Positions 19,980 to 64,000 of a DNA stretch of 64,000 nt are shown in pieces (the first letter of the stretch is position 1; every line of letters begins with the position of its first letter). The notes below the pieces were generated by a model. That model ran no database searches. It had not been told where the DNA came from and was given only the letters and a program-made list of their open reading frames with translations. Source of the stretch: a virus (taxonomy: Duplodnaviria > Caudoviricetes); the IMG/VR virus record IMGVR_UViG_3300031867_005256, positions 4,636-68,635 of that record. One strand, 5' to 3'. The position numbers and the translations under genes are program-made.

Positions 19980-22900
19980 ATGGCTACTCTGAAAAGAATG
20001 GAACTCCACTCTCATACAGAGTATTCTTAAAAAGCTAATCTTCGCATTGTGGATAGTATTAACAAGCCAGAGGCGCTAATAGACAGAGCAATAGAATTAG
20101 GCTTGGCGGGTATTGCAATAACAGACCACGAGAGTTTGTCTGGCAGCATCCGCATAAATAAATATGCTAAAAAAATCAGAGAAAAATATCCAGACTTTAA
20201 AATTGCAATTGGTGACGAAATTTATTTAGTAGATGAAAGACCTACTGATAAGCATTACCATTTCATATTAATTGCGAAAGATGCCGTTGGGCATAAGCAA
20301 CTTCGTTATCTATCTTCTCTTGCATGGATGAACTCTTATTATGCGAAGGGTCTTGAAAGAGTAGATACTCTGAAATCCGATTTGGAGAAAGTAATAAAAG
20401 CAAATCCCGGTCATATTATGGCGTTTTCAGCGTGTCTCGGTTCAGAGATCGACCAAGCTATATTAAGATTGACAAAAGCAGAAAAAGTAGACGATGAAGA
20501 AGAGAGAAAGAAAGCTCATAATGATATTGTAAAAATGGTTCTTTGGTGCAAGGAATTGTTTGGAGAAGATTTCTACCTCGAATGTCAGCCCGCCTGTTCA
20601 AAAGAGCAGATTACTGTAAATAGAAGATTACTTTCAATTGCAGCTTGTTTTAATGTAAAGATGACAGTTTCTTGCGATGTTCATTATTTAAAGAAAGAAG
20701 ATAGATATATTCATAAGGCTTTTCTGAATAGTAAACAAGGTGAAAGAGAAGTTGATGCTTTTTATGAGTATACATATCTTCAATCAAATGAAGAAATATA
20801 TGAAAATTTAAAAGCCTGTGATTATGATGAATTATTTGTTAATCAGCTTTTTAATAATACGATGGAAGTGTGGAACAAAATTGAATTTTATGATTTTGAA
20901 CACACTCAGCAAATCCCCTCAGTAGAAGTGCCGATTTATAACAAGCGGCAGCCGCCCGCAGAATTAATAGAAAAGAATGAATTATCAAGAATGTTTCAAT
21001 CTGATGACGATGTAGAACGTTATTGGGTAAATTATTGTTGGGATAAGTTACAAGATTATTGCAAGAAAAAGAATAAAGATATCGTTCCTTATATTGATGA
21101 ATTAGAAGAAGAAGCCGAAGTAAAAACAATAGTAGGAAAGAAACTTGATACAAATATGTTTTCTTATCCTGTCGTTTTACAACATTATATTGATTTAATT
21201 TGGGAGTGCGACAGTATTATTGGGGCAGGTCGTGGAAGTGCGTGTGCTGCTTTAAATCATTTCTTGCTTGGAATTACCCAGCTCGACCCATTGGACTGGT
21301 CTTTTCCGTTCTTCCGATACATGAATAGGGAAACAACCTCGCTTGGAGATATAGACATTGATGTACAACCGAGTCGAAGGCCCGCAATTATGAAAGCTAT
21401 AAAAGAAGAGCGAAGTAAGAATATTAAATCTACATATGATGATAAAACGAAAACTGAGCTTGGTTGTACTTACGTAGCAACATTTGGAACAGAATCGAGC
21501 AAAAGTGCAATACTCACCGCCGCAAGAGGATATCGTTCAGAAGAATTTCCTGATGGAATTGATAGTGATATTAGTAAATATTTATCTTCTCTTATACCTT
21601 CTGATAGAGGTTTTGTAAGAACTTTATCTCAAGTCGTTTATGGAGATGAAGAAAAAGATTATAAGCCTATTGCTCCATTCGTTGCGGAAATCAGCCAATA
21701 TCCTGGCTTATTAGAAATAGCTATGGGAATTGAAGGGCTAATATCAAGACGTGGTATTCACGCATCTGGTATTATTATGTTTGATGAAGATCCATATGCA
21801 AGATGTTGTTTTATGAAAGCCCCGAATGGGAGCATTACGACTCAGTTTGACCTCCATGATGCGGAATATATGGGCAATGTAAAGTATGACCTCCTTGTTA
21901 CGGAAGTCTGCGATAGGTTAGGTCAGACTCTCAAGATTATGCAAGAGAAGGGAATTTTTGATAAAAATTTAACTTTAAGAGAATTATACAATCAAACCAT
22001 TCATCCTGATGTTTTAAATATAGAAGATGAATCAGTATGGAAATCTATTCAAGAAGCAAATGTTTATGCTATGTTTCAGCTTGACTCAAATGTTGGCAGA
22101 CAAGGGACAAAAGCAATCAAGCCTACTAATATGTGGGAATTGAGTAATACAAATGCTTTGATTAGACTGATGGCGGAAGAGGGTGAAGAACGCCCGATGG
22201 ACAAGTATATCCGCTATCGTAAGAATCCAGTCTTTTGGGAAGCAGAAATGGATAAATATGAATTAACAGAAGAAGAAAAAGAAGCCGTGCGGAGACAGCT
22301 TGATAAATCTTCTGGGGTAGGTCTTTCTCAGGAACAGCTTATGAAGATTTTGATGAACGAGCATCTTTGTCATTTTAGTCTTGCTGAAGCCAATGCAGCG
22401 AGGAAAGTCGTTTCAAAGAAGAAGTTCAAAGAAATCGAGACTTTAAAAGAAAAAGTATTTAATCATGCCAGAAATGAAAAGCTTGGTCAATATATTTGGA
22501 CTTCGGTTGTACAGCCTCAGCTTGGATATTCCTTTTCCGAGATACACTCGCTTAGTTATAGCTACATTGGTTATCAAACCGCATATATCTCAACCCACTG
22601 GAATCCTGTGTATTGGAACACGGCTTGCTTGATTGTCGATTCAGGCTCTCTCGATGCAGAAGAAGGAGAAAAAGAGAAGAATACAGACTATTCTAAAGTT
22701 GCTAAAGCAATAGGAATGATGAAATCTCAAGGAATAGAAGTTTCTTTGGTAGATATTAATAAATCTTCTTTCGGTTTTGAAGCAGATGACAAAAATAATA
22801 GAATATTGTTTGGTTTAAAAGGATTGTCAAAGATAAATGATGAGTCAGTAGAAAAAATAATAAGCGGAAGACCATATACAGGAATAATTGATTTTATGAA

Positions 22901-23909
22901 CAGATGCCCACTTACAAAAACTGCAATGCTATCTTTAATAAAAGGTGGAGCATTTGATGAAGTCGATTATGAATGGGCTTCAAAAATAAATCCCGAGCCC
23001 CGCGTTGCAATTATGGCATATTACATTTCTATTGCTTGTGAGCCTAAAAAGAAATTAACAATGCAAAATGCGGCAGGTCTTATTAAAGCGGGATTCATAC
23101 CAGATGATTTTGATGTTCAAAAAAGAGTCTTCGCTTTTAATAAGTATTTAAAGAATAATAAAAGTGGAGAATATTATATCTTAGATGCTCCATGTCAAAA
23201 CTTTTATTCAAAGTATTTTGACCAAGATAAACTTGTTATAGATGAAAACCAGAATATAAAGATACTTCAAAAAGAGTGGGAAAAAATATATAAAACCGAA
23301 ATGGAAAAAATCAAAGTATGGCTGATTCAAAATCATGACGAAGTTTTAAAGAAATATAATTTTCTTCTTTTTAAAGAAATGTGGAATAAGTATTGCGAGA
23401 ATACGATTGCTGCATGGGAAATGGAAGCTTGCTGTTTCTATTCTCATCCGCATGAATTGCTTAATATAGACAGGGGAAAATATGGATTAAGCGATTTTTC
23501 TCAATTGCCGCAAGTCCCAGAGGTAGAATATTATTTTAAGAGAGGCGGAAGAGATATTCCTATCTATTGTCTTACAAGGATTGTAGGAACAATTTTGAAT
23601 AAGGATGATGTTCGCTCGTCTATATCATTACTTACTCTTGACGGTGTTATTACAGTGAAATTTACGAAAGAATATTATGCAAATTATAAGAAGCGTATTT
23701 CTCAAGTAAATCCCGATGGAACAAAGACTGTTATTGAAGATGGTTGGTTCAAGAGAGGAAATAAAATAATGGTTACAGGTTTCCGCAGAGAGGATACTTT
23801 TGTAGCAAAGAGTTATACAAATACTCCTACACATCAATTGTATTTAATTACTTCTATTTCAAAAGACGGAACAACTATGGAACTTGAACATGAGAGAGCG
23901 GATGTATAA
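19980..23909 (+). CDS. dnaE: DNA polymerase III alpha (DnaE-type); N-terminus interrupted by an in-frame TAA at 20028-20030
   Basis: PHP motifs HSHTEYS and ITDHE, GAGRGS, catalytic DIDID, RGIHASG, KYDLL and a C-terminal OB fold. Promoter and RBS precede ATG 19980. Confidence 0.9.
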
Positions 23910-38455: not shown

Positions 38456-41400
38456 TTACTTATTATCTGTCATTTCTGTTGCTGCTTTATTATAGAGTTT
38501 CTCAAATGCGGCAGCTATTTCATCTGCACGAGTTTTTCCATCAAAAGTAGCATCTATTTCAACAAGTTGTTTAAGTATTTGTTGACGGTCTGCTAACAGT
38601 TGTATAATTCCTGCTACACCTTGTGCAATACTTGCTTGCGCACCGCCCTGCTCTGCTGCAGCAGTCATTTTGTCAAAAATGCCATTAGCTATGTTAACAG
38701 CTCTCTCATGAGCTTTCTTTTCTTCTTCTTCCATCTAAGCGGCATTAGCAGCCCTGATTTCTTCTTTTGATACTTCGGAGGCTTCTTCTTCTTTCTTCTT
38801 TGTGCGGTCATATGCTCCTAAATCTGTTGAACGATGAGAGTATCCGAAGGCTCGAGGGTCTTTCTTTGCATTTCGAGAGTCTTTGTCATAGCTTCCTAAT
38901 GTGGAGATATCTTGAATAGTGCTGATGCCTTCCATTGCTTCAATTTTGCTTCTTCCTCTGTCTCCATAGAGACTTTCGTCGTAATAAGCAATACCATCCT
39001 TCATCCAATAGTCAACAGTGCCACCATAGTCAACTGCAGGAACTGTTCCAGTCGAAGACCCTGCATCCGCATTCCCGAAATCAAGAGCACTGATTTCCTG
39101 TTCTCTCATCAAGAGACTCTCTTCATAAGCGTTTAAAGCCGCATCTATGAGCTACTGTAAAAGATCTTCTACTCCTTCAAGTTCTTCAAGGACTTTTTCC
39201 ATTTGAGCGAGTTGGTTTAACATATTATCTACTTCAGAAGCAAGATAATCAGCCATTGTCTGTTGAATACCAATATCACTCTCAATATAGCTTTCAAGCA
39301 TACTCTGAATACTTGCAGCTTCACTTTCTCTTTCTGCAGATGCCGCAACGGATTCTTCAATATCTTCTTGAGAAAAATCTCCAGAAGTATCTAATTTATC
39401 TTTATATAAATCAATGAAGCCTTCGTCTCCGCCCTTAGAATAGGTCTGCATATCTTCAAGAGATTGACTTAAATCTCCTCTGAGTTTTGTGATTAATCCA
39501 TCTGCTCCAAAATATTCTTCCCACAGAGAATTTGCTTTTCCGCTCTTCTCTTCTGTCGTTAAGCTGTCATCTTTAAAGATAGACTCCATAAGAGAAGTAA
39601 ACTTTGTTTGTAAAGAATCGATGGTATTACCTGTCTCTTTTACATTGTCACGAGCTAAATTGTAAAGCTCATTTTCAGCTTTCGCAACCTCAGCCTCCGC
39701 CTTTTTCGTCTCTTCTTCATCCGCAACATATTCATATCTATAATTACCTGCCGCGTCTCTTCTCAAGCGCATCTTAGATTTATTTTCTTTTGCTTCATCA
39801 AGAGCCATCTGCTTTAAAGTTAATTCATAAAGTTTATTTGCTCTCTCTATTTCATATTTACTTATTTCTTTTGTTGTATTTAATCTTTCATTTAATCTTT
39901 CATTAATTTCTTGCTGCACTTTAAGTAATTGTTCTGATGCGGCGGTATCCGTCATTTCCGCAAGAGAATCATTAATTTTTTGATTTAAAGCATTGATTTG
40001 ATAAAGAGAATTAGTATAATTATAAAATGCTTTATCTTCGCCTTCTTGTAACTCATTCATCCAAGAATATTGTAAAGAAGTTCCTGATAATTCGTCTTGC
40101 GCCTTCTTAACTCTTTCAGTAATGCTATTAATAGTATTTTCAAATTTCTCATTAATAGAGTTCAGAGCAGTTTCAAAATATCCATAGCTTGAAGATGCGG
40201 CATCCTAAAATGCGGACATCCATTTTTGAGCAGCATCTTTATTCCCCTTTGCAACTGCCTCAGCAAACTTCGATGCATATAAATCAGCCTAAGAACGTGC
40301 GGTATTTGCAACAGCGAGGTTTGTGCTAATAATTCTCTCTAAATAACCATTCAATCTATCATATGCTTTATCGCCATAAGCTAATTTAACGCTATTTGAG
40401 AGAGTGCCTAAAGCGGAAACAATTTGATTAAGACTCGAAAGAAGCTGACTGTTTGCGGAAATGATAGCGTCAATAGCAGAAAGATAAGTTTCTTTCATCT
40501 ATTTTATATTATCCATTGCCGCCTGTGCATTGCTTCCAAGCTAATCTCGATATTTCTCTAAATCACTAAAAGCGGCAGACTGATCTGTTCCGTAAATTTT
40601 TGAAGTACCCCCGCCCTGCATTGTACGGATTTCCGCCATTATATCATTAACATGATCTGTTAAAATCTGAATACTTCCACCAGGTAATGTCGAATTAGGA
40701 TTTGTCTTTATGTATTCTTGAAGTTGCTTGAATTGAAGATTGAGATTTCCTAAATAATCATCATCTCTTAAACCTTCTAACTCTGCACGCAGTTTGTGCA
40801 GGTTTCGCCATGCTTCTTCGATATTTACTTCTACATCAACTTTTGCATTAAAATTATTAGACAATTCTTTTGCCATAGCATCTTTAATAGCTTTCGCTGC
40901 ATCCGAGGCAGAATCTTTAGCAGATTGTACCGTATCAAACTGGGAAGCCACTTCTGCCCCCTATGAATTAAGAGCCTCAAGATTACTAAGAAGAGCATCT
41001 CTTTCATCCCTTCTTAAGCCTACCGCACTCTCAATTGCGGCAACCATCTCATAATAATTAGCAAGAGAGGCATCTTCATTAAGGACTATCTATGCTTCTA
41101 TACCGGCTTTGGCTAACGCCATCTAAAAATCTTTAATTCTTTCTTGCATCTATTTTTTCAATATAGCAAGTTTCTTTTCTTCTTGTGCTACGATCTTTTC
41201 CTGCACTGCAAGTTGTTGACGCAAGTTATTAACCAGGGCTTGTCCAGTTAAGTCAGATTGAGCTTTCTTCAATTTGCTTAATTCCCTATTTAGTTCTTTT
41301 ACTCTCTAATCTACTTTACTTGTCTCGATTTTGTCTTCCGCAGCTTTAACTTTTTCCGAACTTACGGCAATGTCGTCCATAATTTCTTTATATTTTTCTG

Positions 41401-44400
41401 CGGAATCTCTTGCGGACTCTATCTTTTTCCGAATGTCTTCCCATACTTCAATTAATGAATTATTTTTACCATCTGCATTATTGTCTTTAAGTTCTTTTAA
41501 TTTGTCATCTATTTGGTCTATTGCATTATCAAAACTTTCAAGACTCTCAATATCAAGAGAATCTATGTCAACACCCGCTTCTGACAGCATCTTTCCTAAG
41601 TCATCTTTACTAAGAGTATTTTTTAATGCGGTAACTTGATTTTCGTATTCTTTTAACTTTTCTTGCTCTTTTTCAAAAACTTCTTCTTCAATTTCAATCT
41701 TGTCTGATAAACTTAAATTTTCTGAATCACTACGGAGTCGTTCAATGCTTTTATTTAATTTATCAACATCTTTAGAAGATTCTTCTACTATACTATCAAA
41801 TGTTACCCACTGTTTAGAAATATTATTCTTAAAAAGAATCTCTTCGGATTCCGCAATGTTCTCAAGACCATCATCTATCGAATCAACACTGCTGCTAACA
41901 TCGGAAATCAAAGATAAAAGTGAACGAGACTACGCTTGTATTTCTGAAAGTTTTTCTTTTGCTTCTTCAAGGGGTTGTTTTGCAGATTCATCGCCTTCAT
42001 CAACACGCCTTTGCAATTCATTTACAACATCGGTCTGTGCGGAGCCAGCTTTATTTAAGACATCTACTGCAGTCTATACAGAATCGCCAGTGAATCTTCC
42101 CTTTTTGTCAGTAGCTAAAGTAACTCCATATTGAGAAGCAATTTCCTAAGCCTCTTGACGTTTATTCTTAAGACTCTCTTCTTCTAAACTATTTGACTAT
42201 TTCTAAAGCTCAATTCTTTCTTTTTGTTTTGTGTTTATCTCTTCGTATATTGAGAGGAGTGCGGGACCTGTCGCGTTTTCAGCTCTTTTTTCTAATTCAG
42301 TAATTTCTTTATCTTTATCTTTTATTAAAGTATCGATATAATTATAATTATTTTCTGTGTCTTCCCATTCAACAGCTTTAGTATAAGTAACGGTTTTTGA
42401 AGTATCTTCTAAATTGGGAGAAGCATTAAATATTTCATCAGATGCTCTTAAGGCATCCTAAAAAGGTTTTATACTATCAAGCCAGTCTTGATAGTCTTGA
42501 TAGTCTGAGGCTGAATTAATTGCTCTCGAACGTCGAAGTTTCTCTTCTTCTATTTCTTGAAGAGATAATAAGTTAATAGAATTTCTTATCAATCCCTGCT
42601 CAATTGCTTGCTATGCTAAATACTCTTGATAAGCCTCTTTCCTTTTCTCTGCTATTTTTTCAATTTCATTTTCTTGAACTACAAGCTGTCCATTAATTAC
42701 AGAAAATGCATCCTAAAATTCAGCAGGTAAAGAAAATAAAGATTCCATTGTTGAGCGAGAAATTTGACCGTATTTTTCCTGTTCTTCTCTTGCCGCTCTA
42801 ATAGTTACTACATTTTTGTCATAATCAGATAAATCAATACGCTTTATTTCGGAAGAAGTATCTAAAAGGATGTCTTTAAAAATAACAAAATCTTGATTAA
42901 CACTTTTCTACTACTCTTCTAAGTCAGCTAACTCTTCATTTAAGTCAGCTAACACTTTATTATGCTCATCTTTGTTATGATAATCAATACCAAACCTTAG
43001 CTGACTATTTTTTTCTATCTAATCTCTTTTCTCCTAAATCTTTTTATCTAAATCTTTATTTATTTTATCTAAAGTATCTTCTGCGGTAGATAAAATTGTA
43101 TCTGTTACTAAATTAGCTATTCCAGAAGTATTAAAACTAAGTTCTCCATCTTTCATAAATAATTCTTCATAAGCTGGAGATATATCCGTTTTTAGTTTCG
43201 CCCATGTTTCAGGAGAAATTTTTCCATCTTTGTTATATTCTTCTTCCGCTGCCTAAAGAATCTTTTGCTGTTCTCTTAAGGATTCTATCGATTCTCCAGA
43301 AATAATATTTTGAAATTGCGTCATATAACTTGAAAAATCTCTACCTTCTGAAGTTTTCTCTAATGAAGATATAGCTAATTCAAGTCTATCAATGTCTTTT
43401 GCTGCACCTTTAGCTTTTTCAAAATCTTCAATAGCCTTAACGTAGCTTTCTGCATATGCTAATACTGGGTTTGATCCATTTTCCTCTTCAAAAACAGAAA
43501 GATCTGATAAGACTTTTTCTGAAAGCCCCTCGTCCTCTATCCGCTTTATTAAATCGTCTATCTCAGAATCGGTTAATTTACCTTCTAAGATGTGCCTTAA
43601 AGAGGATTCTTCCTTTTCAATTTTTTCAAAACTTCCTTGACTTTCTATCTCTCGAAGTTTATCAATTTCTTCTTCCATTAAGGAAATATTTTCGTTTTTG
43701 TTTAGCTCTGCTCGTTTCGTTGTATAAGAAAAATATCCATCTACAAGATTTTTTCTCTCTTCAAAAGAGGCTTTCTCAAAATCTTCTATTGTCTGTATAG
43801 AAGATTCTTCCTTCTCTATATATTCTTTAAAGGATGTCTAAGCAAAAAGGGTAGAAGCATCTTCTTCATTCTAATAAGAAGATTCTATTAATCTTTTAGC
43901 AGCATTTGCACCTGAGTTATCAGAGATAGCTTGAGAAGTTATATTATAAGAAGCCTATTGCTTTTTAATACCTTCAACGGATAAATCAGTTAAGCCCTGG
44001 CTATAAGAAGAATATAATGATAATACCTCTTCATCTGTAAGCCCCTCAATAGTCTCTTTAACAGCTGGATCCTTAGTAAGTTTTAATAAGAAAGCTCTGG
44101 ATTCCATTGCGACAGTATCAGATAATTTTAGAAAATAGTTATGGACATATTCTTCGGCTTCCTCTTCGGAGAGTCCTAAATTTTCCATATAGCGGATAAA
44201 AGCACTTCTATCAGTAGAGAAGTCTGAAAAATCTTCAAAAGAATCTCCCATTCGCAAAGCAAATAATTTCGCGCTTTCTTCAATACTATTATCCACAGCA
44301 GAGATAATAGCATCTAAATATTCTTTATTATCTGCATATATTTTTTCTATGTCTTTATAATATTTTTTAGATTTATTAGAAGCATCTTCAAGCCAAGCAA

Positions 44401-47400
44401 TCAAAGATTTAATATTTTCTGGATCAGATAATTCTCTGGAACTTATGTTAAACGACGTTCCCTGACTATCCATTGTAGGAGTAAAACCTATTTCCCTTAA
44501 GTCATTCTAAAAAGCTGCTGTTCCTCCCTACTTGATAACACGCCCACCTACCTTTAGATGGTAAGCGTCTCCTTCTTTATGGAAAAGTTTCTCTATTACA
44601 TCTGCTCCTATATTAGTTTCCGCATTTTCTTTAGCAGCATCCAAATTTTTCTTAGCAGTATCTACAACTTCTTTCTGTTGTTTTAACTCCATATTTGACA
44701 TTATATCATTTAATTCTGCTTCAGATGCCGTAAGAGCTTGTACTGCTGTATTTAACTCTCCATATTCAACAAGTAAATCATGGGTCTTTTTTCGAACTTC
44801 CTCTAAAGAGGTTTCTCCGTCTTCATAGGTCTTATATAAATTTTTGTATTCAGAAACGAGACTCTCTAAATTCTTTGCCTCTTCTTTTTTCTATTCATAC
44901 AATTTAGAAGATTCTTCGGCATTTTCCTTTGCTTTTTGACTTTCTTTTTCTATCTCGCTCGTTAAATCTCCATAAGCTACCCCTAAAATACCTATTATAA
45001 TAGTGATCGCAGCAGCTGCTATATTACTAAATCCAAGTGCTGTTGTAAGAAGTTTTATTCCCTATGCGGCTCCCGTTGCAGCCATGCCAATAGAAGTGAG
45101 TCCTGCAGCAAAATTTCCTTGCTCAAGAGCTTGTGCAGCGCTTGCAGCACTGCTTGTTAGAATCATAAAAGAAGTTATTCCTTGAGAAATTCCTGTAAGA
45201 GCTGCTTCAAAATTAAAATTTTTAAGTTTTTCAAGAGCATTCTCTGCCCTCTTCGTTTCTATAACTACACCAGAGATACTCTCGGTAAATTCTTCAAATG
45301 CAGCTTTTCCTTCCTCTGCGCTCATCCCTGCGGCTTCTGCAAGTTTTAAAAACTCTTCCTTTAACGAAGGTAACAGATTCTTAGCATCTCCTCCTCTTAG
45401 TACAATATCATTTAACATGGAAGTCATTTTTTGTTTTATCTAATCAATTTGTTCTGTAAACTGTCCTTTATCTGTTAAAGATTTAAATAAAGGTACCGCA
45501 TCTATTGTTTTGCTTGCTAATTGAGTATTGATTTTATTTACATAGGCTTCAACGAGTCGTTTTCCAGCTTCGCTCCCCGCATCTTTACCTTGTAACTTGC
45601 TTATCACGTTCTTCTTAAACTCTGCGGCAGCTGCCTTTAAGGGAGAATAATTGCCTGTCTATATATAATAAGAAAATTCTTTAATAAAATCATCAGCCTT
45701 TTTCTGTACAGAACCATGCAAATAAGCTGATTCTGTTCCGCCTAACTTTGAGGATTTTGTGTCAATTGCTGAAAAATCTATCTATCCTGTTAACTTGTCT
45801 AATGGCGCCTACATTGAAGAATTTCCCCATTTAGCTGATTCCCAGGCCTTTAAACTGTCAATATTTTTCTTTATTGCGGCAGAAAATTGTTCATATTCCT
45901 TTTTTGCTCTTTCTATCTCCTGCTGCTGTTCTTTTAAAGATTTATTATTTAAATCTATCTTTAATGTATTATCTGTCTATGTTTTGTTCCATTTTGTTGT
46001 AGAAGTCTGAATTTCTTGAAGTTTTACATTTATAGTAACTAAATCATTTGTATAGTTTTGTAAAATTTGCCTGCTCTGCTCTAATGATTCTTGTGTAAGA
46101 TAAGGAGCATTTCTAAAATAGCTCTCTTTATTATTTAAAAGGTCATCTACACCCGCATTTTTACGTAACTGCGGGTCAATCTTATCGCGAACACTCTATA
46201 AAGATGCAAATCCTGTTTCTATAACTTGCTTATTATATCTTGGAGCAACAAACATATTATTATATGTTTGATTCATTGCCTAAGCAATCTGCTTGCTAAA
46301 CAACATTCCCATTAATGGAGCAACTTGGCTTAAAATACCCTTTAAGCCACCCATACCGTCAACAATTTTTTCAATAACCTGTAAAACTTTTGTTGCGGCA
46401 TCCGCTACGTCATTAATGCTATCCGCATCAAGCAAACTATTATAAACACCCTCTGCGGCAGTCCTTACTTGCTGTAAATGTGCAGCAGTAGTTTCCATAT
46501 AGATATCTTGCTGTTGATTTAAAGTTCCTGCTGCGGTTGCGCTATCCTCCAAGGCTTGTTCATACATATCCCAGTTTTCAAACAAAGCCATGAGGTTGTT
46601 ATATTGTCTTGTCGTAAAACCTTATATGTTTCCATATGAGCCAGACTATATCTTCACTTATCTCTAAGTGCCCCCCATTTCGGAGTTATGCTCCTACTTC
46701 CTCTCGGAATAGTCGTTGAGCCTTATTCTCAAAGAGAATCTTGGTTGCGGATTACCCAATCTTTAATCTTTTTACCATACCTGAGTAGTTAATTCAGCCA
46801 CTAAATATATCACTATTTTAGTTTGGTAATTAAAGCTCTAAGGGACTCCCCGCAGTTAAAGGGGTTTTACGCGAGCACAAAATCAATTATTTTTACCCGC
46901 CATAACTTGAGCAAGAGCAATCTTCTATTCTCTACCCATTGACTACCATTTTGTACCAACTTCGTCAATGACATCGCCCATATCTCTTAAATGTCCAGTA
47001 GCATCAAGTACATTAATACCGAAGCCCGCCATCTTTTCGGTATAACTATCAAGAGTAGCACCATCTTCAACATCTTCTCCTGCGGAAATAGATGTCATAC
47101 GAGCAAGGATTGTCTTGTACGCTGTACCAACTGTTTCTGGAGATTGTCTCGTTACAGAAATAGTCGTTGCGAGGATTGCGTTCATGTGGTCAACATCAAC
47201 ACCGACAGTATTTGCGGCAGAAGCAACTTTAGACATACCTGTTGATAGCTCTTCAAGGTCTGCGGCAGTCGTTGCGGCAACCTTAGCGAGTTTATCAACA
47301 TAAAGTTCTGCTTCTTCTGAACTTACTTGATAACCATTCCAAAGAGCGGTGAGCTATTCAGATACAGCCGCAGTTTGTTGTTGCGTAACGTTTGCCGCCT

Positions 47401-58165: not shown

Positions 58166-59512
58166 TTATCTATTTTTATTACTTTCAACAGCCTTAACCC
58201 AATCGGGAACGTCTGACTCCATTTCCTCAACAGCCGCACCCATAGTTAAAGTAAACATTGTAGGCTCTTCTAGTGTATTATCATTTTTCTCAGAATCATC
58301 TAAATTAAAGTTGACCTTTTTTCTAAAACAAATTACTGCCAACTTAGATTCAATATCTTCTAAAGAATATTTATCTTTATTATCAATGACATCTTTCTTA
58401 TCTTCATCAGAAAGCATATAGAACTTATCTATAAGAGCATCTTTCCGCTTTGTCATTTCAGCATTATAAAAAGTTTCGAGTTCTGCAACTTTATTCTGTA
58501 AAGCAGCATAAGAATTTTCTAAAGCAGAATATTTGCTTTGAAGTCCAGCATACTCTGCTTCAATAGACAGAGAGTGTTCAGATGCGGGCTTGTCTTCCTC
58601 ATCTTCATCTTTTTTCTCTTCTTCGTCCGCTTTCTTATCTTCCTCTTCTTCCTTCTTCTCTGACTCTGTTACATCAGGAGTTGCGGAAGTCGTGGAAGTA
58701 TCAGAAGTCTCTTCAACTTTTTCGGACTCGGTGGGAACCTCTGCCTCCTCGGGAGTTGCCGCAGACTCAAGAACTTCCTCAGTAGTCTTTTCGTTGTCCA
58801 TCTTATTACCTCCTTCTAAAGCAAATTTTAATGTATTTATCATTTCTGAAAATTCTGCTTTAAAATCAACATCTGAATTTTCTATAAAAGAGAACGTACT
58901 TGCGGGAGCTGCAATACTTGCGCCTTCAAAGCAAGGCTCTACATCGTCTCCTAAAATACATAATTTAGAAAATTCGGCATCAGTTATTATGAAAAAATCT
59001 CTACCTGTATTGCTATCATTTGCCCAATGTCCTTCAAGGGTTGACCCCTCTATTTCCATCGACTGCGGCTATCCTTCTTTTAAAATTTTATCAGCTTCAT
59101 TAAACTAACCGTTCCAAATGTAGCCTTCACACATCAGATACTCTCTTTCAACAGTATTACCAAATTCATCAGTATCTTCAAAAACTTGGAACCATACTTT
59201 TGCGTCAGTAGAAACAAATCCGTATGGAATGGTTAAAACTTCTTCTTTAATACCATCCACATCAAGTATCATTCTGTGTCCGTGATCTCCAAAGTCCTCC
59301 TTGTCTTTTCTATAATACCCAACAATAGGAGAACCTCTTAAAGTATCCGCCATCTTAGTTGCGACTTCCTTAGAAATCATTGAACCATTTCTATTCTTTC
59401 CCGTATATAATACTTTAATATCACATTTAGACATTAGAGTATTTACAGCAAGGGGAGAAAGATTAAGAAATTCAGGATTTCTAATTGCAACACTTTTATT
59501 CTTTATTGCCAT
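58166..59512 (-). CDS. Prohead protease-scaffold fusion (448 aa), 2 TAG
   Basis: N-terminal GSPIVG...GDHG...QSME protease-like domain, then an acidic coiled-coil scaffold; between portal and MCP. Confidence 0.7.
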
Positions 59513-59528
59513 TTTTGTTTTCACCTAC

Positions 59529-61058
59529 TTAACTCATAGACTCTCTATTCTAAATTGTCTTTTCTGATTTTTCATCATCTGGCTTCTCAGGGCGGCCGCC
59601 CGTATTGTCATCATTATTCAAAGATTTAGTTCTATTGAGAACATCCGCGTTCATAACGTTTGAGCTAATAGGCGGAATAAATACATTAACCAAATCAAGA
59701 ATATCATTTTCAAATACTGCGTTTGCGAGTACAGACGATTGAGATTGACCGAGAGCGATTTGCGGCAGCATCTTTGAATAACCTAATTGGGTCTATTCTT
59801 TATATAATTTTGCCATTTCTTTATAATTATAAATTGTAGTTGTTAATATCTATACTCTAAAAGTAATTTTCTTTGTCGAGTTAAATGGCTAAATAAGAAG
59901 ATTAAGAAAATCTTCAAATTTCAGAATTAAATTATATATAGAAGCCTCATCGTTTAAGATAGATTTTTCAAGAGCAATATTACCGTCAGTGTTGAATTGC
60001 ATTTGAGAAACGCCCGCCTCATTATAAACAGCTCTTTCAATTCTTTCCAAATCATCTGTTGCGGTAGAAGTTGAATTATCTGCCATATCTTCTACATCAA
60101 CATCCGCAAAAGTAGTTAAGACATCAATACCAATAGCTCTACCAATCATAGCAACCGCATTATTGTGCATTTGTTTAGCTTCTTCCATGTCGAAAAGCAT
60201 ATCGCCATTTTTGTCAAGCGGCAACTTCTGTATAATTATTTTGAGAAGCTCTTGTTCAAGTTTCTTTTTATCTAATTCCTATGCCGCATCCAAATCTATA
60301 ATTGCGGGGATTACCGACATCATAAAAGGCTAATCGTCGTCATTTAAATTGAATTTTACGGCATTATGAATATCTAAAACGTACCAACCATTTGAATCAC
60401 CAGGATATACGGGTTTTAACTTTCCTTGTTTATAAAGGCGGTAGCCTTTTCTAAATTCTTCTGGAAACAGTTTTAACATTTGATATCTATATGCCGCATC
60501 TCTAAAATAATCATCAAAGAATTTCATATTAAATTCAACGACAGGTCTGTTATCAACACAGAAACGAGAACGACAATATTTAATAGGTAACTCTTGGATT
60601 GCCGCTTTGTTCTTATATCTTATAATATATCCATAATAGCATCCGTTTTTTACTACCTTTAAAGCAATCTCACCAAGAATCCTTTTAATTTTAAATTCGT
60701 CTAAGAAAGTTAAGATTTTAGAAAATTTAGTTGTTAGCTTTTCTCTATCTACTTCTTCTTTATCAAAGTAAGGAGTAACCATCCAATCATATCTATATAA
60801 GTAAGCAATATATCTACATAAACGAGAATATATTCCGCTAATCTTAAAAAAGTAATTTGATATTTTATACATTTCTTCATAGCTATTCTTCTACATTGCG
60901 GATAATACTTTCATTTTTGTAGCTAAGTTATTACTTACCTTTTGATAATCTCCAATAGTCAAAGTAGCATCTTCCAGCTTTTTTGCGCCTATTCTAATCT
61001 TTGAATAATCTATGGGAGCCGCTACTTTATTAGACATTAACTCTTGTCTATTCTTCAT
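59529..61058 (-). CDS. Portal protein (509 aa), 7 TAG
   Basis: Three track ORFs and the flanks form one frame with TAG=Q (KE[Q]TQLGYSK, SEKTI[Q]NRES); position between terL and the protease. Confidence 0.8.
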
Positions 61059-61079
61059 TATTTCACTCCTTTCTAATTA

Positions 61080-61108
61080 ATTATAGCATAATTTTTTTAT
61101 CTTGTCAA
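61080..61108 (-). promoter_or_regulatory. Sigma-A promoter upstream of the portal
   Basis: TTGACA-N17-TG.TATAAT on the minus strand. Confidence 0.8.
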
Positions 61109-61112
61109 AAAA

Positions 61113-61476
61113 TTAGTAGCCTGCCGCGTGCATAATATAGTCATAATTAACGCGGGCCTCATCCCAGTAAGGCACAAGCACTAAGGTTATACCATGCTTT
61201 TTACAATATTCACGTTTACGCATATCATTATATTGCTATTTCCGCAGCCCACTAAAACCGCCAAATTTACTTTTAGGCTCATAATGGTAGGTGCTGGATT
61301 CCCTAATACTCTATTAAGAAATCCAACTCATTATTATCATCGAAAACAGCAAAATCAAACCTAAGCGGAGTCCCTGATTTTGTGGTTAAATCTGGGAAGC
61401 TATATTCTTCTTTATAAACTAAGCCCGCTTGGTCAAGTATATCACAAATTTTAATTTCTCCTCTACTTGCTTTCAT
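61113..61476 (-). CDS. PD-(D/E)XK / DUF559-like nuclease-fold protein (118 aa) carrying a 7-nt frameshifting insertion
   Basis: MKASRGEIKI...LRFDFAVF...LIEY[Q]GIQH, then HYEPKSKFGG...ND..KREYC...VPYW in another frame. Span is 357 + 7 nt. Confidence 0.7.
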
Positions 61477-61596
61477 GATAATCCTACCCTCCTTTCCAAC
61501 CTCGCTAAATAGCCCAGGATACTCTTGACAGAGTATATTTTTGATTTACTATATATTACTTAAAAATTGTGAAATGTTTTAACACAATTTTGACCA

Positions 61597-61625
61597 AAAA
61601 AATAAGGGCTTGCGCCCTTATTTTA
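61597..61625 (-). terminator. Terminator after the secreted-protein gene
   Basis: aataagggc-ttgc-gcccttatt hairpin with a T run on the minus strand. Confidence 0.75.
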
Positions 61626-62786
61626 TATTTCAACACTATTATCAAGATAGCCCGCGGCCGCACTAACATCCTCTATGCTTTCAATAGATTCTACAATCAG
61701 TGAATCCCAATACCAATCTCTTGTTGTGTATAAAGACATCGAAAGGAATAAGTCTTTTGCTGCGGAAGCTGAGTTACTGGTAAGCCCACTCCATGTAAAA
61801 GTCAGGCTATCTTTACCCCAATAGAAAGAATCAGTGTCTTGTAAAGATAAAGTATAATTATCATTTACGACCAGACTTCCAGAGAATAAATCTATATTAA
61901 CATAAGAATATGGATTATAAACCTGTTGAGTATCGTAATAAGAGACAAAAGTAAACGATACATCATCACTTTTTGCAATTACATCATTAATATGGGCAAT
62001 TGGATTAAAATAGTAAACACCATCAATATTTTTAGGAGACTTTAATGCGTACACAACATTGTTTGTATAAAGGGTGAAGCCCTCTTCTGTAACATAGGGG
62101 TACGTCCGCATAGAAGTCTTAAAAGGATAAGCCTTTATCTCTGTCGAAAGATTATTTGAGCGGCTAAAGTATGCGCGAGTAGGAAGAACTTTTTCTCCTT
62201 TTCTATTGACAAAAGAAGAAGAATTTAAGTTACCATATCCCTGCTCATCTTTAAGGTTCTTAGAGATCTTACAAGTTAATTCAACTTTAATATGGCTAAA
62301 GCCATAAAAATATTGCGATGAATAACCTAAAGAAAGAAGCGGAGAACCAAGAGCAAAGCCATTAGTTGTACCGTAAGGTAACTCAACATAAGTTCCATAA
62401 AACACCTTCGGATTATAGGTATAATAAGCGGAATCACTTGCGATCGCCGCACTCTTAGTATATCCATATCTATTCGTTGCCATACTTGCAAGACGACCAT
62501 CTGTTGATGCCATCTGCTCCGTTTCAATAGAAATAGAGAAAATATCCGTTACGTTAGTATTAATAAAACCTACTGTAAAATTACTCTCTGCATCTTCTAT
62601 CATGAAGCTATCTCCGGTTAATGCAGGGCCATATTCAAGAGTATAAGTAACGATTGCGCTACTATCAACTTTGTTGTAAGTTTTTAAATCATAAGTATAC
62701 TTTTCTGCGGAAGCCGCAACGCCCGCAGAACTCATGACAGCAGTTGTTAATGCAACCGCAATGGCTAAAATTTTCTTTAAATTCAT
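61623..62786 (-). CDS. Secreted protein with Sec signal peptide (387 aa), no TAG; cargo gene
   Basis: MNLKKILAIAVALTTAVMSSAGVAASA|E; AGGAG RBS; own terminator; Ser/Thr/Tyr-rich, beta-rich body. Confidence 0.8.
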   Translation of the reverse strand: MNLKKILAIAVALTTAVMSSAGVAASAEKYTYDLKTYNKVDSSAIVTYTLEYGPALTGDSFMIEDAESNFTVGFINTNVTDIFSISIETEQMASTDGRLASMATNRYGYTKSAAIASDSAYYTYNPKVFYGTYVELPYGTTNGFALGSPLLSLGYSSQYFYGFSHIKVELTCKISKNLKDEQGYGNLNSSSFVNRKGEKVLPTRAYFSRSNNLSTEIKAYPFKTSMRTYPYVTEEGFTLYTNNVVYALKSPKNIDGVYYFNPIAHINDVIAKSDDVSFTFVSYYDTQQVYNPYSYVNIDLFSGSLVVNDNYTLSLQDTDSFYWGKDSLTFTWSGLTSNSASAAKDLFLSMSLYTTRDWYWDSLIVESIESIEDVSAAAGYLDNSVEI

Positions 62787-62868
62787 AACTATAATCTCCT
62801 TTGTAAAAATATGGAAGAGAAAACCCAAATATTATTGAATTTTCTCTTCATAACATTATATACATTTG

Positions 62869-63398
62869 TCAATTGAACAGCATCATATCTGCCATAGAAA
62901 AACGCTTGTGTTTCCGCTTGCTTTCATCTTCCTTTTTAATAAAATATAAACCATAAAGAAAAGCGGAAACCTTATCCTTTTTAATAGATTTAGAAGATTG
63001 TTTAAGGATAATATTTATACCGTCATTGCTTTGAACCAAGTTTGCCATTTGCTCTTTTAATATAGTTGTAGCAATGTAGGGTCTTAAATATTCGTTTCTC
63101 TCGTGTGGGCGCATATTCGCGCCTTTTTTTGTTTCAAGCAGATTATTCTTTGCCTATGTTTCATCTATTAAGAAATGCACTCTTCCGCCCATTATTTGAG
63201 CCTAAGCAAAAGCATACATCTCTGTATTCATAGGAGCATTTGCTTTTATTATAAATACTGCATTTTGTTCCATATCAGTAGTTCGATATTTTTTATAATT
63301 TCCATCATCATCATTAATAATACCAAAAGGAACAAGTGTTTCACCTGTCTCTGGATCTATCTAAGATTTTACTAAATAGTCCACAAGACCCGCACCTA
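62869..63398 (-). CDS. terL: Terminase large subunit, last exon (3 TAG)
   Basis: Reads (L)GAGLVDYLVKS[Q]IDPETG...IKKDKVSAFLYGLY, a nuclease-domain C-terminus; upstream of the portal. Confidence 0.8.
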
Positions 63399-64000
63399 CA
63401 AATATCTTCTATATAAAACGCTACTTTTATATACGTTCTCTTATGAACTGCTCTATGTTTCCATAGAAGTTGAGACTATATCATATTCCTAATTAGGAAC
63501 CTTTCCACTTCCGCCGCCAATCGCTTGCGGCGTACTCTCTTCCGAGATAGTCGTTGAACTTTCTTTTAAATATTTCTGAATAACATTTTTCCAAGATTTC
63601 TAATATTTTATTCTGTATAAACTATCTTCTTTTACTTTAAATTTTTTCATTAATTCTTTATATGGGTAATTAGGATTCTTCTAAAAAATTTTAAAAATTT
63701 CAATAACTTCCTTTTCTGCTAATTTAGCAGAACCATTTACTTTCGCTCGTAAATTATTCTCTATTGCATGATGAATATTTTCTTTTGAAGTTACCCATTC
63801 TAAATTGCTTAGTTTATTGTTGCTTTTATTCCCATCTATATGATTCACCTATAATTTATCCATCCCAACAACGGGAGAAAAATTCTCTAAAACTAACCTA
63901 TGAACAGAATATCTATGCCTTTTTCCATCTGCTGAAATTAATCTAACTTTTTCATATCCATCTTTATCTGTTTGTGTTGTTAAGAACTTACCAGTTACTT
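63399..64000 (-). ncRNA. Group I intron in terL, 3' part (continues beyond the window)
   Basis: R ttcaacgactatc and S gatatagtctcaac; P9 hairpins; terminal G at 63399 before the exon TA-GGT-GCG-GGT. Confidence 0.85.
63441..64000 (-). CDS. Intron-encoded HNH homing endonuclease, 5'-truncated by the window, multiple TAG
   Basis: [10 protein letters not shown]...L[TAG][24 protein letters not shown]; the frame runs through the R and S core elements to TAA. Confidence 0.88.

Follow-up and report, generated by a model that had tools for sequence, protein, structure and literature searches.

A 7-nt frameshifting insert in a conserved nuclease gene of a TAG-recoded gut phage: a probable young knock-out allele with a possible histidine-to-histidine hop

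To our knowledge, natural short translational hops are almost undocumented, and besides phage T4 gene 60 with its homologs and the byps of yeast mitochondria, only the terminase gene of phage phiHau3 has partial experimental support. In T4 gene 60, ribosomes bypass 50 nt between matched take-off and landing codons with an efficiency of 30-50%, in a conserved cassette that includes a stop codon after the take-off codon, a take-off stem-loop, and a nascent-peptide signal. The phiHau3 terminase gene carries two frame-disrupting 10-nt inserts and the S. catenulae and StrepC.1 prophage terminase genes carry 7-nt ones, placed directly after a rare UUA codon and with invariant junctions; rare-codon-triggered bypassing was proposed for them by Smith et al. 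in 2013 and by Antonov et al. in 2023, and a bypass junction peptide was detected by mass spectrometry in E. coli (PMC10732093). The stop-hops and hungry-codon hops of E. coli (Weiss et al. 1987; Gallant and Lindsley) have been reviewed together with the “savior” indels of the herpes simplex thymidine kinase G-run, and according to that review no natural use of such hops is known in bacteria (PMC5009743). Here we describe a 7-nt frameshifting insert in a small nuclease gene (61113..61476, minus strand) of a gut phage in which TAG encodes glutamine, found in a 64,000-nt stretch, hereafter the window, of IMG/VR record IMGVR_UViG_3300031867_005256. A preliminary description of this DNA had proposed that ribosomes hop over the insert between two matched histidine codons; we lean towards a young, tolerated knock-out or strong knock-down allele on which hopping is at most incidental.

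DNA alignments with the two closest orthologs, MT836163.1 (77.5% amino acid identity) and IMG/VR locus L006 (88%), contain one 7-nt gap each, so the size of the insert had been described exactly. The orthologs read CAG/CAA CAT TAT GA(A/G) where the window reads CAG-CACCTAC-CAT TAT GAG. The 7 nt missing from the orthologs (CACCTAC, 61287..61293) are equivalent to CTACCAT at 61284..61290, the bases that a hop would skip, and with CA on both flanks the placement of the gap can shift by 2 nt. The gene begins with an ATG at 61476-61474, 10 nt downstream of a strong Shine-Dalgarno sequence read directly from the DNA (AAGGAGGG, 61494-61487, minus strand). With TAG as glutamine, the frame-0 open reading frame (ORF; 61279..61476, minus strand) encodes 65 amino acids ending in ...GIQHLPL, its codons at the break being TAG (61305-61303) GGA ATC CAG CAC (61293-61291) CTA CCA TTA TGA (61281-61279), which confirms the reported UGA stop four codons after CAC. 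The +1 frame reads TAC CAT (61286-61284) TAT GAG CCT and is open to a TAA at 61115-61113, encoding the 56 C-terminal codons (YEPKSKFGG...AAGY, 61113..61283, minus strand) with one TAG for Gln at 61238-61236. Reading TAG as Gln is justified because in the nearest GenBank ortholog both in-frame TAGs of the gene face CAA or CAG, and about 70 further orthologs have Gln at these sites; the one at 61303..61305 occupies the consensus Gln58 position, where MT836163 has CAA and 71 orthologs have Q. Readthrough of TAG also fuses the late genes of the window, as at 38456..46591, which becomes 2,711 amino acids with 38 TAGs. No tRNA genes were found in the window.

The insert is genuine DNA and not an assembly artefact, one of the outcomes that the preliminary description had named as refuting its proposal. 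A JGI contig (Ga0392372_0006330, sample 3300037400, 10,519 nt) matches window positions 58303-64000 at 100% over 5,698 nt, a match that spans the insert, and since it extends 331 nt past the end of the 68.6-kb record from which the window is taken, the two contigs are distinct. The exact 65-amino-acid product is called in ENA assembly ERZ27256863 (on a 100.8-kb contig) and in the Logan assemblies SRR12668996 and SRR9036512, and the nuclease-portal spacing in the ENA contig and SRR12668996 is the same 418 nt as in the window. All carriers belong to one near-identical lineage, in which the insert appears to be fixed, and none of the approximately 200 other contigs of the clade has it. An IMG/VR match to an 18-mer across the junction (L005) lies in an unrelated gene and was dismissed as a chance match, and an exact-protein look-up of the 36-amino-acid C-terminal ORF returned no record. 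A gapped pattern of the junction had 0 matches among JGI metagenome contigs, probably owing to the exclusion of near-identical records from that search. The window contains no second copy of GCACCTACCA above chance that could have served as a template, and the insert is not a tandem duplication.

The two halves of the gene look undecayed, as had been claimed: relative to L006, the N half has 6 non-synonymous and 21 synonymous differences and the C half 5 and 22. A search for signs of a decaying pseudogene found no lesion beyond the insert and no relaxation in the C half relative to L006. This pattern would fit either a very recent break or continued translation.

Elsewhere in the clade the gene is kept intact. 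Of the loci retrieved with the nuclease as query, all 80 have ...Y(Q)G(I/V)QHY... in a single frame, and in two sets of loci retrieved with the portal protein, picked independently of nuclease presence, an intact nuclease gene stands directly upstream of the portal gene in 79 of 79 and 79 of 80, the single exception being truncated by a contig end. The window portal gene (59529..61058, minus strand; PHROG 2739, E 7e-83) lies directly downstream of the nuclease gene and anchors this conserved order, and the order PHROG 24618, nuclease, portal also occurs in Enterococcus phage VRE9_3. Three of the portal-query relatives (L230, L251, and L255) have two tandem nuclease copies upstream of the portal gene. 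Among 120 short database proteins of the family there were no frameshift tails, all of them ending at a recoded TAG that replaces a conserved Gln, Glu, or Tyr. Products of 62 amino acids that end in ...GIQH were considered as possible inserts at the same site and rejected, their end being a TAG at the Tyr63 codon in a lineage with TAG opposite Tyr. The patchy presence and target-site association of homing endonucleases were not seen in the two portal-query sets, where the gene sits at one and the same locus. Because it is free-standing, 118 amino acids long, and fixed at one locus in every relative, the nuclease behaves as a core gene would and not as a selfish element of sporadic occurrence.

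The N half, the C half, and the joined reading all match PHROG 9084 (“homing endonuclease”) and PHROG 559, the joined reading with E-values of 1.4e-26 and 1e-25, and the His that ends the N half falls into one and the same column of the PHROG profile as the first His of the C half. Pfam DUF2726 matches weakly, under its cut-off, and a PDB sequence search with the nuclease found nothing significant. An AlphaFold2 model of the nearest intact ortholog (predicted local distance difference test score 92.7) consists of a helix, three strands, a long helix, a strand, and two helices, and superimposes on the Vsr endonuclease 1cw0 (Z 10.8, root-mean-square deviation 2.6 Å, 104 residues aligned) and on the catalytic domain of the homing endonuclease I-Bth0305I, 3r3p (Z 10.2, 2.6 Å, 92 of 97 residues aligned); Foldseek E-values for the model were weak (0.02-0.04). 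From this model, the gene product is predicted to be a Vsr/I-Bth0305I-like PD-(D/E)XK nuclease with an alpha-beta-beta-beta-alpha-beta core. It thus has the fold of both enzymes, and the two PHROGs are annotated as homing or HNH endonucleases, but it differs from these enzymes in that its gene is free-standing and its 118 amino acids include no extra DNA-binding domain. Its homologs in Staphylococcus phages stand under a terminase-gene (ter) annotation, beside I-MsaI.

Across 26 diverse orthologs D41, E56, and H62 are invariant and Q58 nearly so, and Q61 and Y63 are invariant as well; D41, E56, H62, and Q58 would be the catalytic residues. The break falls between H62 and Y63, just past strand 3, which carries E56-x-Q58. 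The 65-amino-acid fragment retains helix 1 and strands 1-3 and is presumably inactive, because in the model everything from the long helix (71-91) onwards, with strand 4 (95-100) and the helices of the C terminus, lies beyond its end.

Could ribosomes restore the protein by hopping? The candidate take-off codon is CAC (61291..61293, minus strand), which at 2.0 per 1000 is rarer in the window than all sense codons but one, and the candidate landing codon is CAU (61284..61286), the first CAY 3' of it, with a gap of 4 nt between the two. Bacteria have a single tRNA-His isoacceptor, and the only tRNA-His found in related phages has the anticodon GUG, which bears out the claim that one tRNA reads both codons. 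A CAC-to-CAU hop would yield GIQHYEPK, the family consensus, with a junction peptide of ...LDFLIEYQGIQHYEPK, and the hop product given in the preliminary description (GIQHYEPKSKFGG) equals the sequence encoded by all orthologs. The codon in the A site after take-off, CUA (61288..61290), is the rarest Leu codon of the window (3.9 per 1000, 72 of 18,633 codons), and related phages encode their own tRNA-Leu(UAG). We gauged chance by placing random 7-mers at random positions of the nuclease gene and counting those in which a same-tRNA +7 hop restores the exact protein. This was possible in 5.8% of trials, and the matched His codons, real as they are, are therefore not significant alone.

No signal that would promote a hop was found. 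The codon directly 3' of the take-off codon is CUA (Leu) and not a stop. The UAGG/CCUA pairing proposed earlier amounts to a 4-bp helix of -2.9 kcal/mol (z = +0.8, insignificant), and it loses to a 16-bp hairpin (UUGGAUUUCUUAAUA GAG UAUUAGGGAAUCCAG, 61294..61326, minus strand) that uses the same UAGGGAAUCCA and ends 1 nt before the take-off codon. This hairpin stems from a palindrome within the coding sequence, and orthologs free of the insert, such as L022, form it with equal strength (family median only -3.9 kcal/mol); it did not, therefore, evolve for the hop. The AGGGA that had been likened to a Shine-Dalgarno sequence is just part of the Q-G-I codons and is identical in L006, which is free of the insert. 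With a 4-nt gap too short for a stem-loop and an upstream hairpin that is not specific to the insert, no insert-specific stimulator could be identified. What survives of the original interpretation is the real insert, the matched His codons, and the consensus product; the pairing and the role of the Shine-Dalgarno-like element fall away, as does the family of micro-insertions discussed below. A hop at CAC/CAU is possible but unproven.

Set beside T4 gene 60, the window case is alike in that take-off and landing codons match, the gene belongs to a phage, and relatives lack the insert, and it fails most of the features that define the T4 system; conservation of the insert among homologs is one of these, the insert here occurring in one near-identical lineage only. 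The likeness to phiHau3 is closer: a short frame-disrupting insert (7 nt also being found among its prophage cases) at an invariant junction, with flanks that abut in orthologs, a rare Leu codon right after take-off, and a matched landing codon a few bases on. In contrast to CUA, which is merely rare here, the UUA of the phiHau3 system is essentially undecodable in vegetative hosts and does not occur elsewhere in the phage genome. Stimulatory structures have been proposed there and a junction peptide is in hand; the present case concerns a nuclease gene, has no evident stimulator, and is known from sequence. Like the hops of E. coli, the candidate hop would involve re-pairing at a nearby synonymous codon, a slow A-site codon, a short gap, and no dedicated signal; the E. 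coli hops, however, are low-level events in synthetic or over-expression constructs. With the herpes simplex thymidine kinase gene it would share a frame-breaking indel that persists through low-level non-standard decoding, but there the mechanism is +1/-1 slippage on a homopolymer and no hop.

Only one other broken nuclease copy was found, on contig IMGVR_UViG_3300028591_002104 (loci L074, L181, and L210; gene at L181:875-1237). A 6-nt insert makes this allele read CCT CTT TAG CTC AGA, or P-L-stop-L-R, where every ortholog has P-L-R, and removal of the 6 nt restores the consensus PLRFDF. TAG is a stop codon in this phage, which uses the standard code, since neighbouring genes contain 0 in-frame TAGs in 1,610 codons and the portal gene terminates with TAG. 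CUU UAG CUC is the classic layout of a stop-hop (PMC5009743). When random 6-nt inserts create a stop, 2.9% are restorable by a hop. The allele is known from this one contig, and an exact-protein look-up of its 38-amino-acid fragment returned no record.

A 9-nt insert in the dnaE gene of the window (19980..23909) had been grouped with the nuclease insert in a supposed family of skipped micro-insertions. This 9-mer (20028-20036, plus strand) is real: the gene reads ...GAG TAT TCT TAA AAA GCT AAT..., with TAA AAA GCT between ...HSHTEYS and NLRIVDS of the PHP motif, and it is missing in seven relatives, of which five complete ones as well as L086 and L087 read H-x-H-(T/S)-x-(Y/M)-S-N. It offers no parallel to a hop, the flanking codons UCU and GCU being unmatched and the first true UCU downstream resuming out of frame. 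The simpler way to obtain DnaE would be to restart at GTG 20049, at the cost of the HxH motif. Methyltransferase start and dnaE end are 4,788 nt apart in the ENA contig, the same spacing as in the window, and the only dnaE call there begins at an internal ATG, so that lineage also carries the 9-mer. Like the nuclease insert, the 9-mer is not a tandem duplication; the window likewise holds no further copy of the dnaE 13-mer beyond what chance would give, and an exact-protein look-up of the 1286-amino-acid dnaE ORF returned no record.

The wider proposal of a genome-wide layer of such insertions does not hold, with two unlike inserts and no other frameshifted gene in the window. When all ORFs of two complete relatives were compared with the window, only the nuclease gene was split by a frameshift, the other splits being introns, and pairs of overlapping ORFs that might have been frameshifted genes were rejected as normal neighbours (for example NrdD/NrdG and helicase/primase). 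All three micro-insertions have 2-nt flanking repeats (CA..CA in the nuclease gene, CT..CT in dnaE and in L181), and these may reflect how such inserts arise. In L086 and L087, which are identical and come from two samples, the dnaE start MKRFECHSHSHYSNIRLL (L086:1447-1510) runs into CTT TGA C, a +1 shift site of the RF2 (release factor 2) type, with the remaining dnaE in the +1 frame and an HNH endonuclease gene directly upstream.

How, then, is the nuclease insert best explained? In our preferred reading, a probable one, a 7-nt insertion became fixed in one circulating lineage and frameshifts a gene that would otherwise be intact upstream of the portal. Ordinary decoding would run through CAC CUA CCA UUA to UGA and give the 65-amino-acid fragment, while a minor share of the ribosomes may spontaneously skip the rare CUA, moving from CAC to CAU, and yield the normal protein; any such hop would be a by-product of where the insert lies and not an evolved recoding signal. 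The data show the insert, its occurrence in several datasets and absence elsewhere, the fold, and the truncation. The loss of activity, the recency, and the low efficiency of hopping are what we infer, and the single lesion and a C half constrained like the N half relative to the nearest ortholog suggest that the allele is young. Several observations weigh against this reading. The nuclease is universal in the clade and under strong purifying selection, so a persisting null allele is unexpected, and the portal and four other genes of the same loci show 0 frameshifts in 588 gene-locus comparisons. The A-site codon at take-off matches the layout of the phiHau3 terminase (PMC10732093). Both lesions found among the approximately 200 contigs are hop-restorable, for which the joint chance under random insertion is about 0.002, a figure that shared 2-nt flanking repeats would raise several-fold. 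A less probable but serious account is that of a compensated indel, in which peptidyl-tRNA-His detaches from CAC while CUA occupies the A site and pairs again at CAU 7 nt on, and translation resumes at UAU, making a reduced but functionally sufficient amount of the 118-amino-acid nuclease, and selection leaves only hop-restorable lesions. Besides the joint chance with the independent CUU UAG CUC allele in a standard-code phage, it would draw on the same-tRNA codons and their invariant consensus product QHYEPK, on the rarity of CUA and CAC, on the relatives' own tRNA-Leu(UAG), which hints that hosts serve CUA poorly, on a universal gene whose broken allele persists in at least 4 datasets with an unrelaxed C half, and on the precedent of Streptomyces phage and prophage terminases (PMC10732093). 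The compensated indel is, however, a candidate known here from sequence, CUA with its 72 uses is decoded like any other codon, which UUA in vegetative Streptomyces is not, no element peculiar to the insert would stimulate a hop, and confinement to one near-identical lineage provides no evolutionary test. Unstimulated hops in E. coli proceed at about 1% or less, a low efficiency that also speaks against compensation. Further, if the flanking repeats are mutational in origin, matched codons are expected in about a quarter of cases and not in 3-6%. More doubtful again is the generalization that core-nuclease lesions survive in this clade only if a short synonymous-codon hop restores the protein exactly; the +7 His-His and +6 Leu-Leu stop-hop alleles would fit it, and the inserts might have been selected for destroying a nuclease or CRISPR target.

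Selection of the insert for breaking a homing-endonuclease or CRISPR target, with the cost either accepted or softened by hopping, is unlikely as an explanation by itself. Such target-breaking logic has reportedly been put forward for MobA together with the insert in T4 gene 60. The insert does lie within the invariant stretch encoding EYQGIQHYEPK, the most conserved DNA of the gene, in a region with many mobile nucleases and introns; sample 3300037400 contains several related phages side by side, and the HNH gene of L086/L087 sits directly upstream of a lesion-bearing dnaE 5' end. Yet no relative has an intron or insert at this position of the nuclease gene, and with no nuclease or spacer known for the site the idea is wholly conjectural. 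Other forms of rescue appear very unlikely. A +1 shift anywhere between CAC and UGA would restore the frame (as QH-YH-YEPK or QHLPL-EPK), with UUA UGA G in the position of a “shifty stop”, but no P-site tRNA re-pairs in +1 at CAC, CUA, CCA, or UUA, and the products would gain two residues beside the invariant H62-Y63. Re-initiation to give complementing fragments fares no better: the AUG that has arisen at 61282-61280 would open the wrong frame, and the only in-frame restart, M at 61223, would give 36 amino acids without most of the long helix. Both routes were rejected on codon-anticodon and frame grounds. That the insert is an assembly or sequencing artefact, or a rare variant chosen by the assembler, we regard as scarcely credible, the same sequence or product having come from JGI, ENA, and two Logan assemblies made with different software. 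Nor is the assembly of the window error-prone, since besides introns only the in-frame dnaE 9-mer otherwise interrupts its ORFs. We thus return to the young knock-out or strong knock-down allele as the reading that we favour.

The relatives examined for the nuclease gene also differ in how they appear to read stop codons. In a sub-lineage of about 40 loci (L064, L067-L071, L079, L082, L084, L175, and L199-L269), in-frame TAG stands opposite conserved Glu at up to 24 sites per locus, including the invariant nuclease positions E7, E24, E56, and E104. tRNAs with the anticodon CUA occur at L300:5092-5168 (minus strand), L302:3857-3932 (plus strand), and L303:9240-9315 (minus strand), in three near-complete genomes of 133 kb each, inside arrays of 13-33 tRNAs, and one of these genomes also has a tRNA(UUA). 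Locus L189 (1501-1850; GCA_037194205.1, JBANSD010075327.1, 136,940 nt) has TAG at nuclease Tyr63 (CAG CAT TAG CTT CCT), and its sub-lineage (proteins P0010, P0012, P0014, P0021, and P0024) has three portal TAGs opposite Tyr or Phe, which suggests that TAG is read as Tyr there. L065 has five TAG sites opposite Trp. At 20 related loci (L055, L080, L114, L117, L118, L121, L122, L131, L136, L155, L163, L165, L167, L168, L186, and others), in-frame TGA stands opposite Trp in the portal gene and the gene next to it, consistent with TGA being read as Trp. Within one clade, TAG thus seems to stand for Gln, Glu, Tyr, and perhaps Trp, alongside the use of TGA for Trp and of the standard code. According to a preprint by Borges et al., TAG-to-Gln and TGA-to-Trp are the only such changes observed in phages.

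Between the PHROG 24618 gene and the nuclease gene, the window has a 401-amino-acid ORF (61623-62828, minus strand; 387 amino acids from the ATG chosen by the gene caller) that contains no TAG and matches no PHROG, and in the nearest relative, L006, the corresponding stretch gives a weak match of 209 nt only. The window portal protein (59529-61058) is 40% identical to that of phage Phass-1 (OQ749652.1), a proposed Phassvirus with TAG suppression (PMC10607447), and on this identity the window phage belongs to a wider, mostly undescribed group around Phass-1.

If hopping does occur at these alleles, natural short hops would for the first time be on record outside Streptomyces phages. In either case the 7-nt and 6-nt inserts, at invariant positions of a very well-sampled gene, provide two clean test constructs from uncultured phages. 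If no hop takes place, the window allele would be a dated, lineage-specific knock-out of a universally kept gene, and the nuclease would be dispensable at least in the short term.

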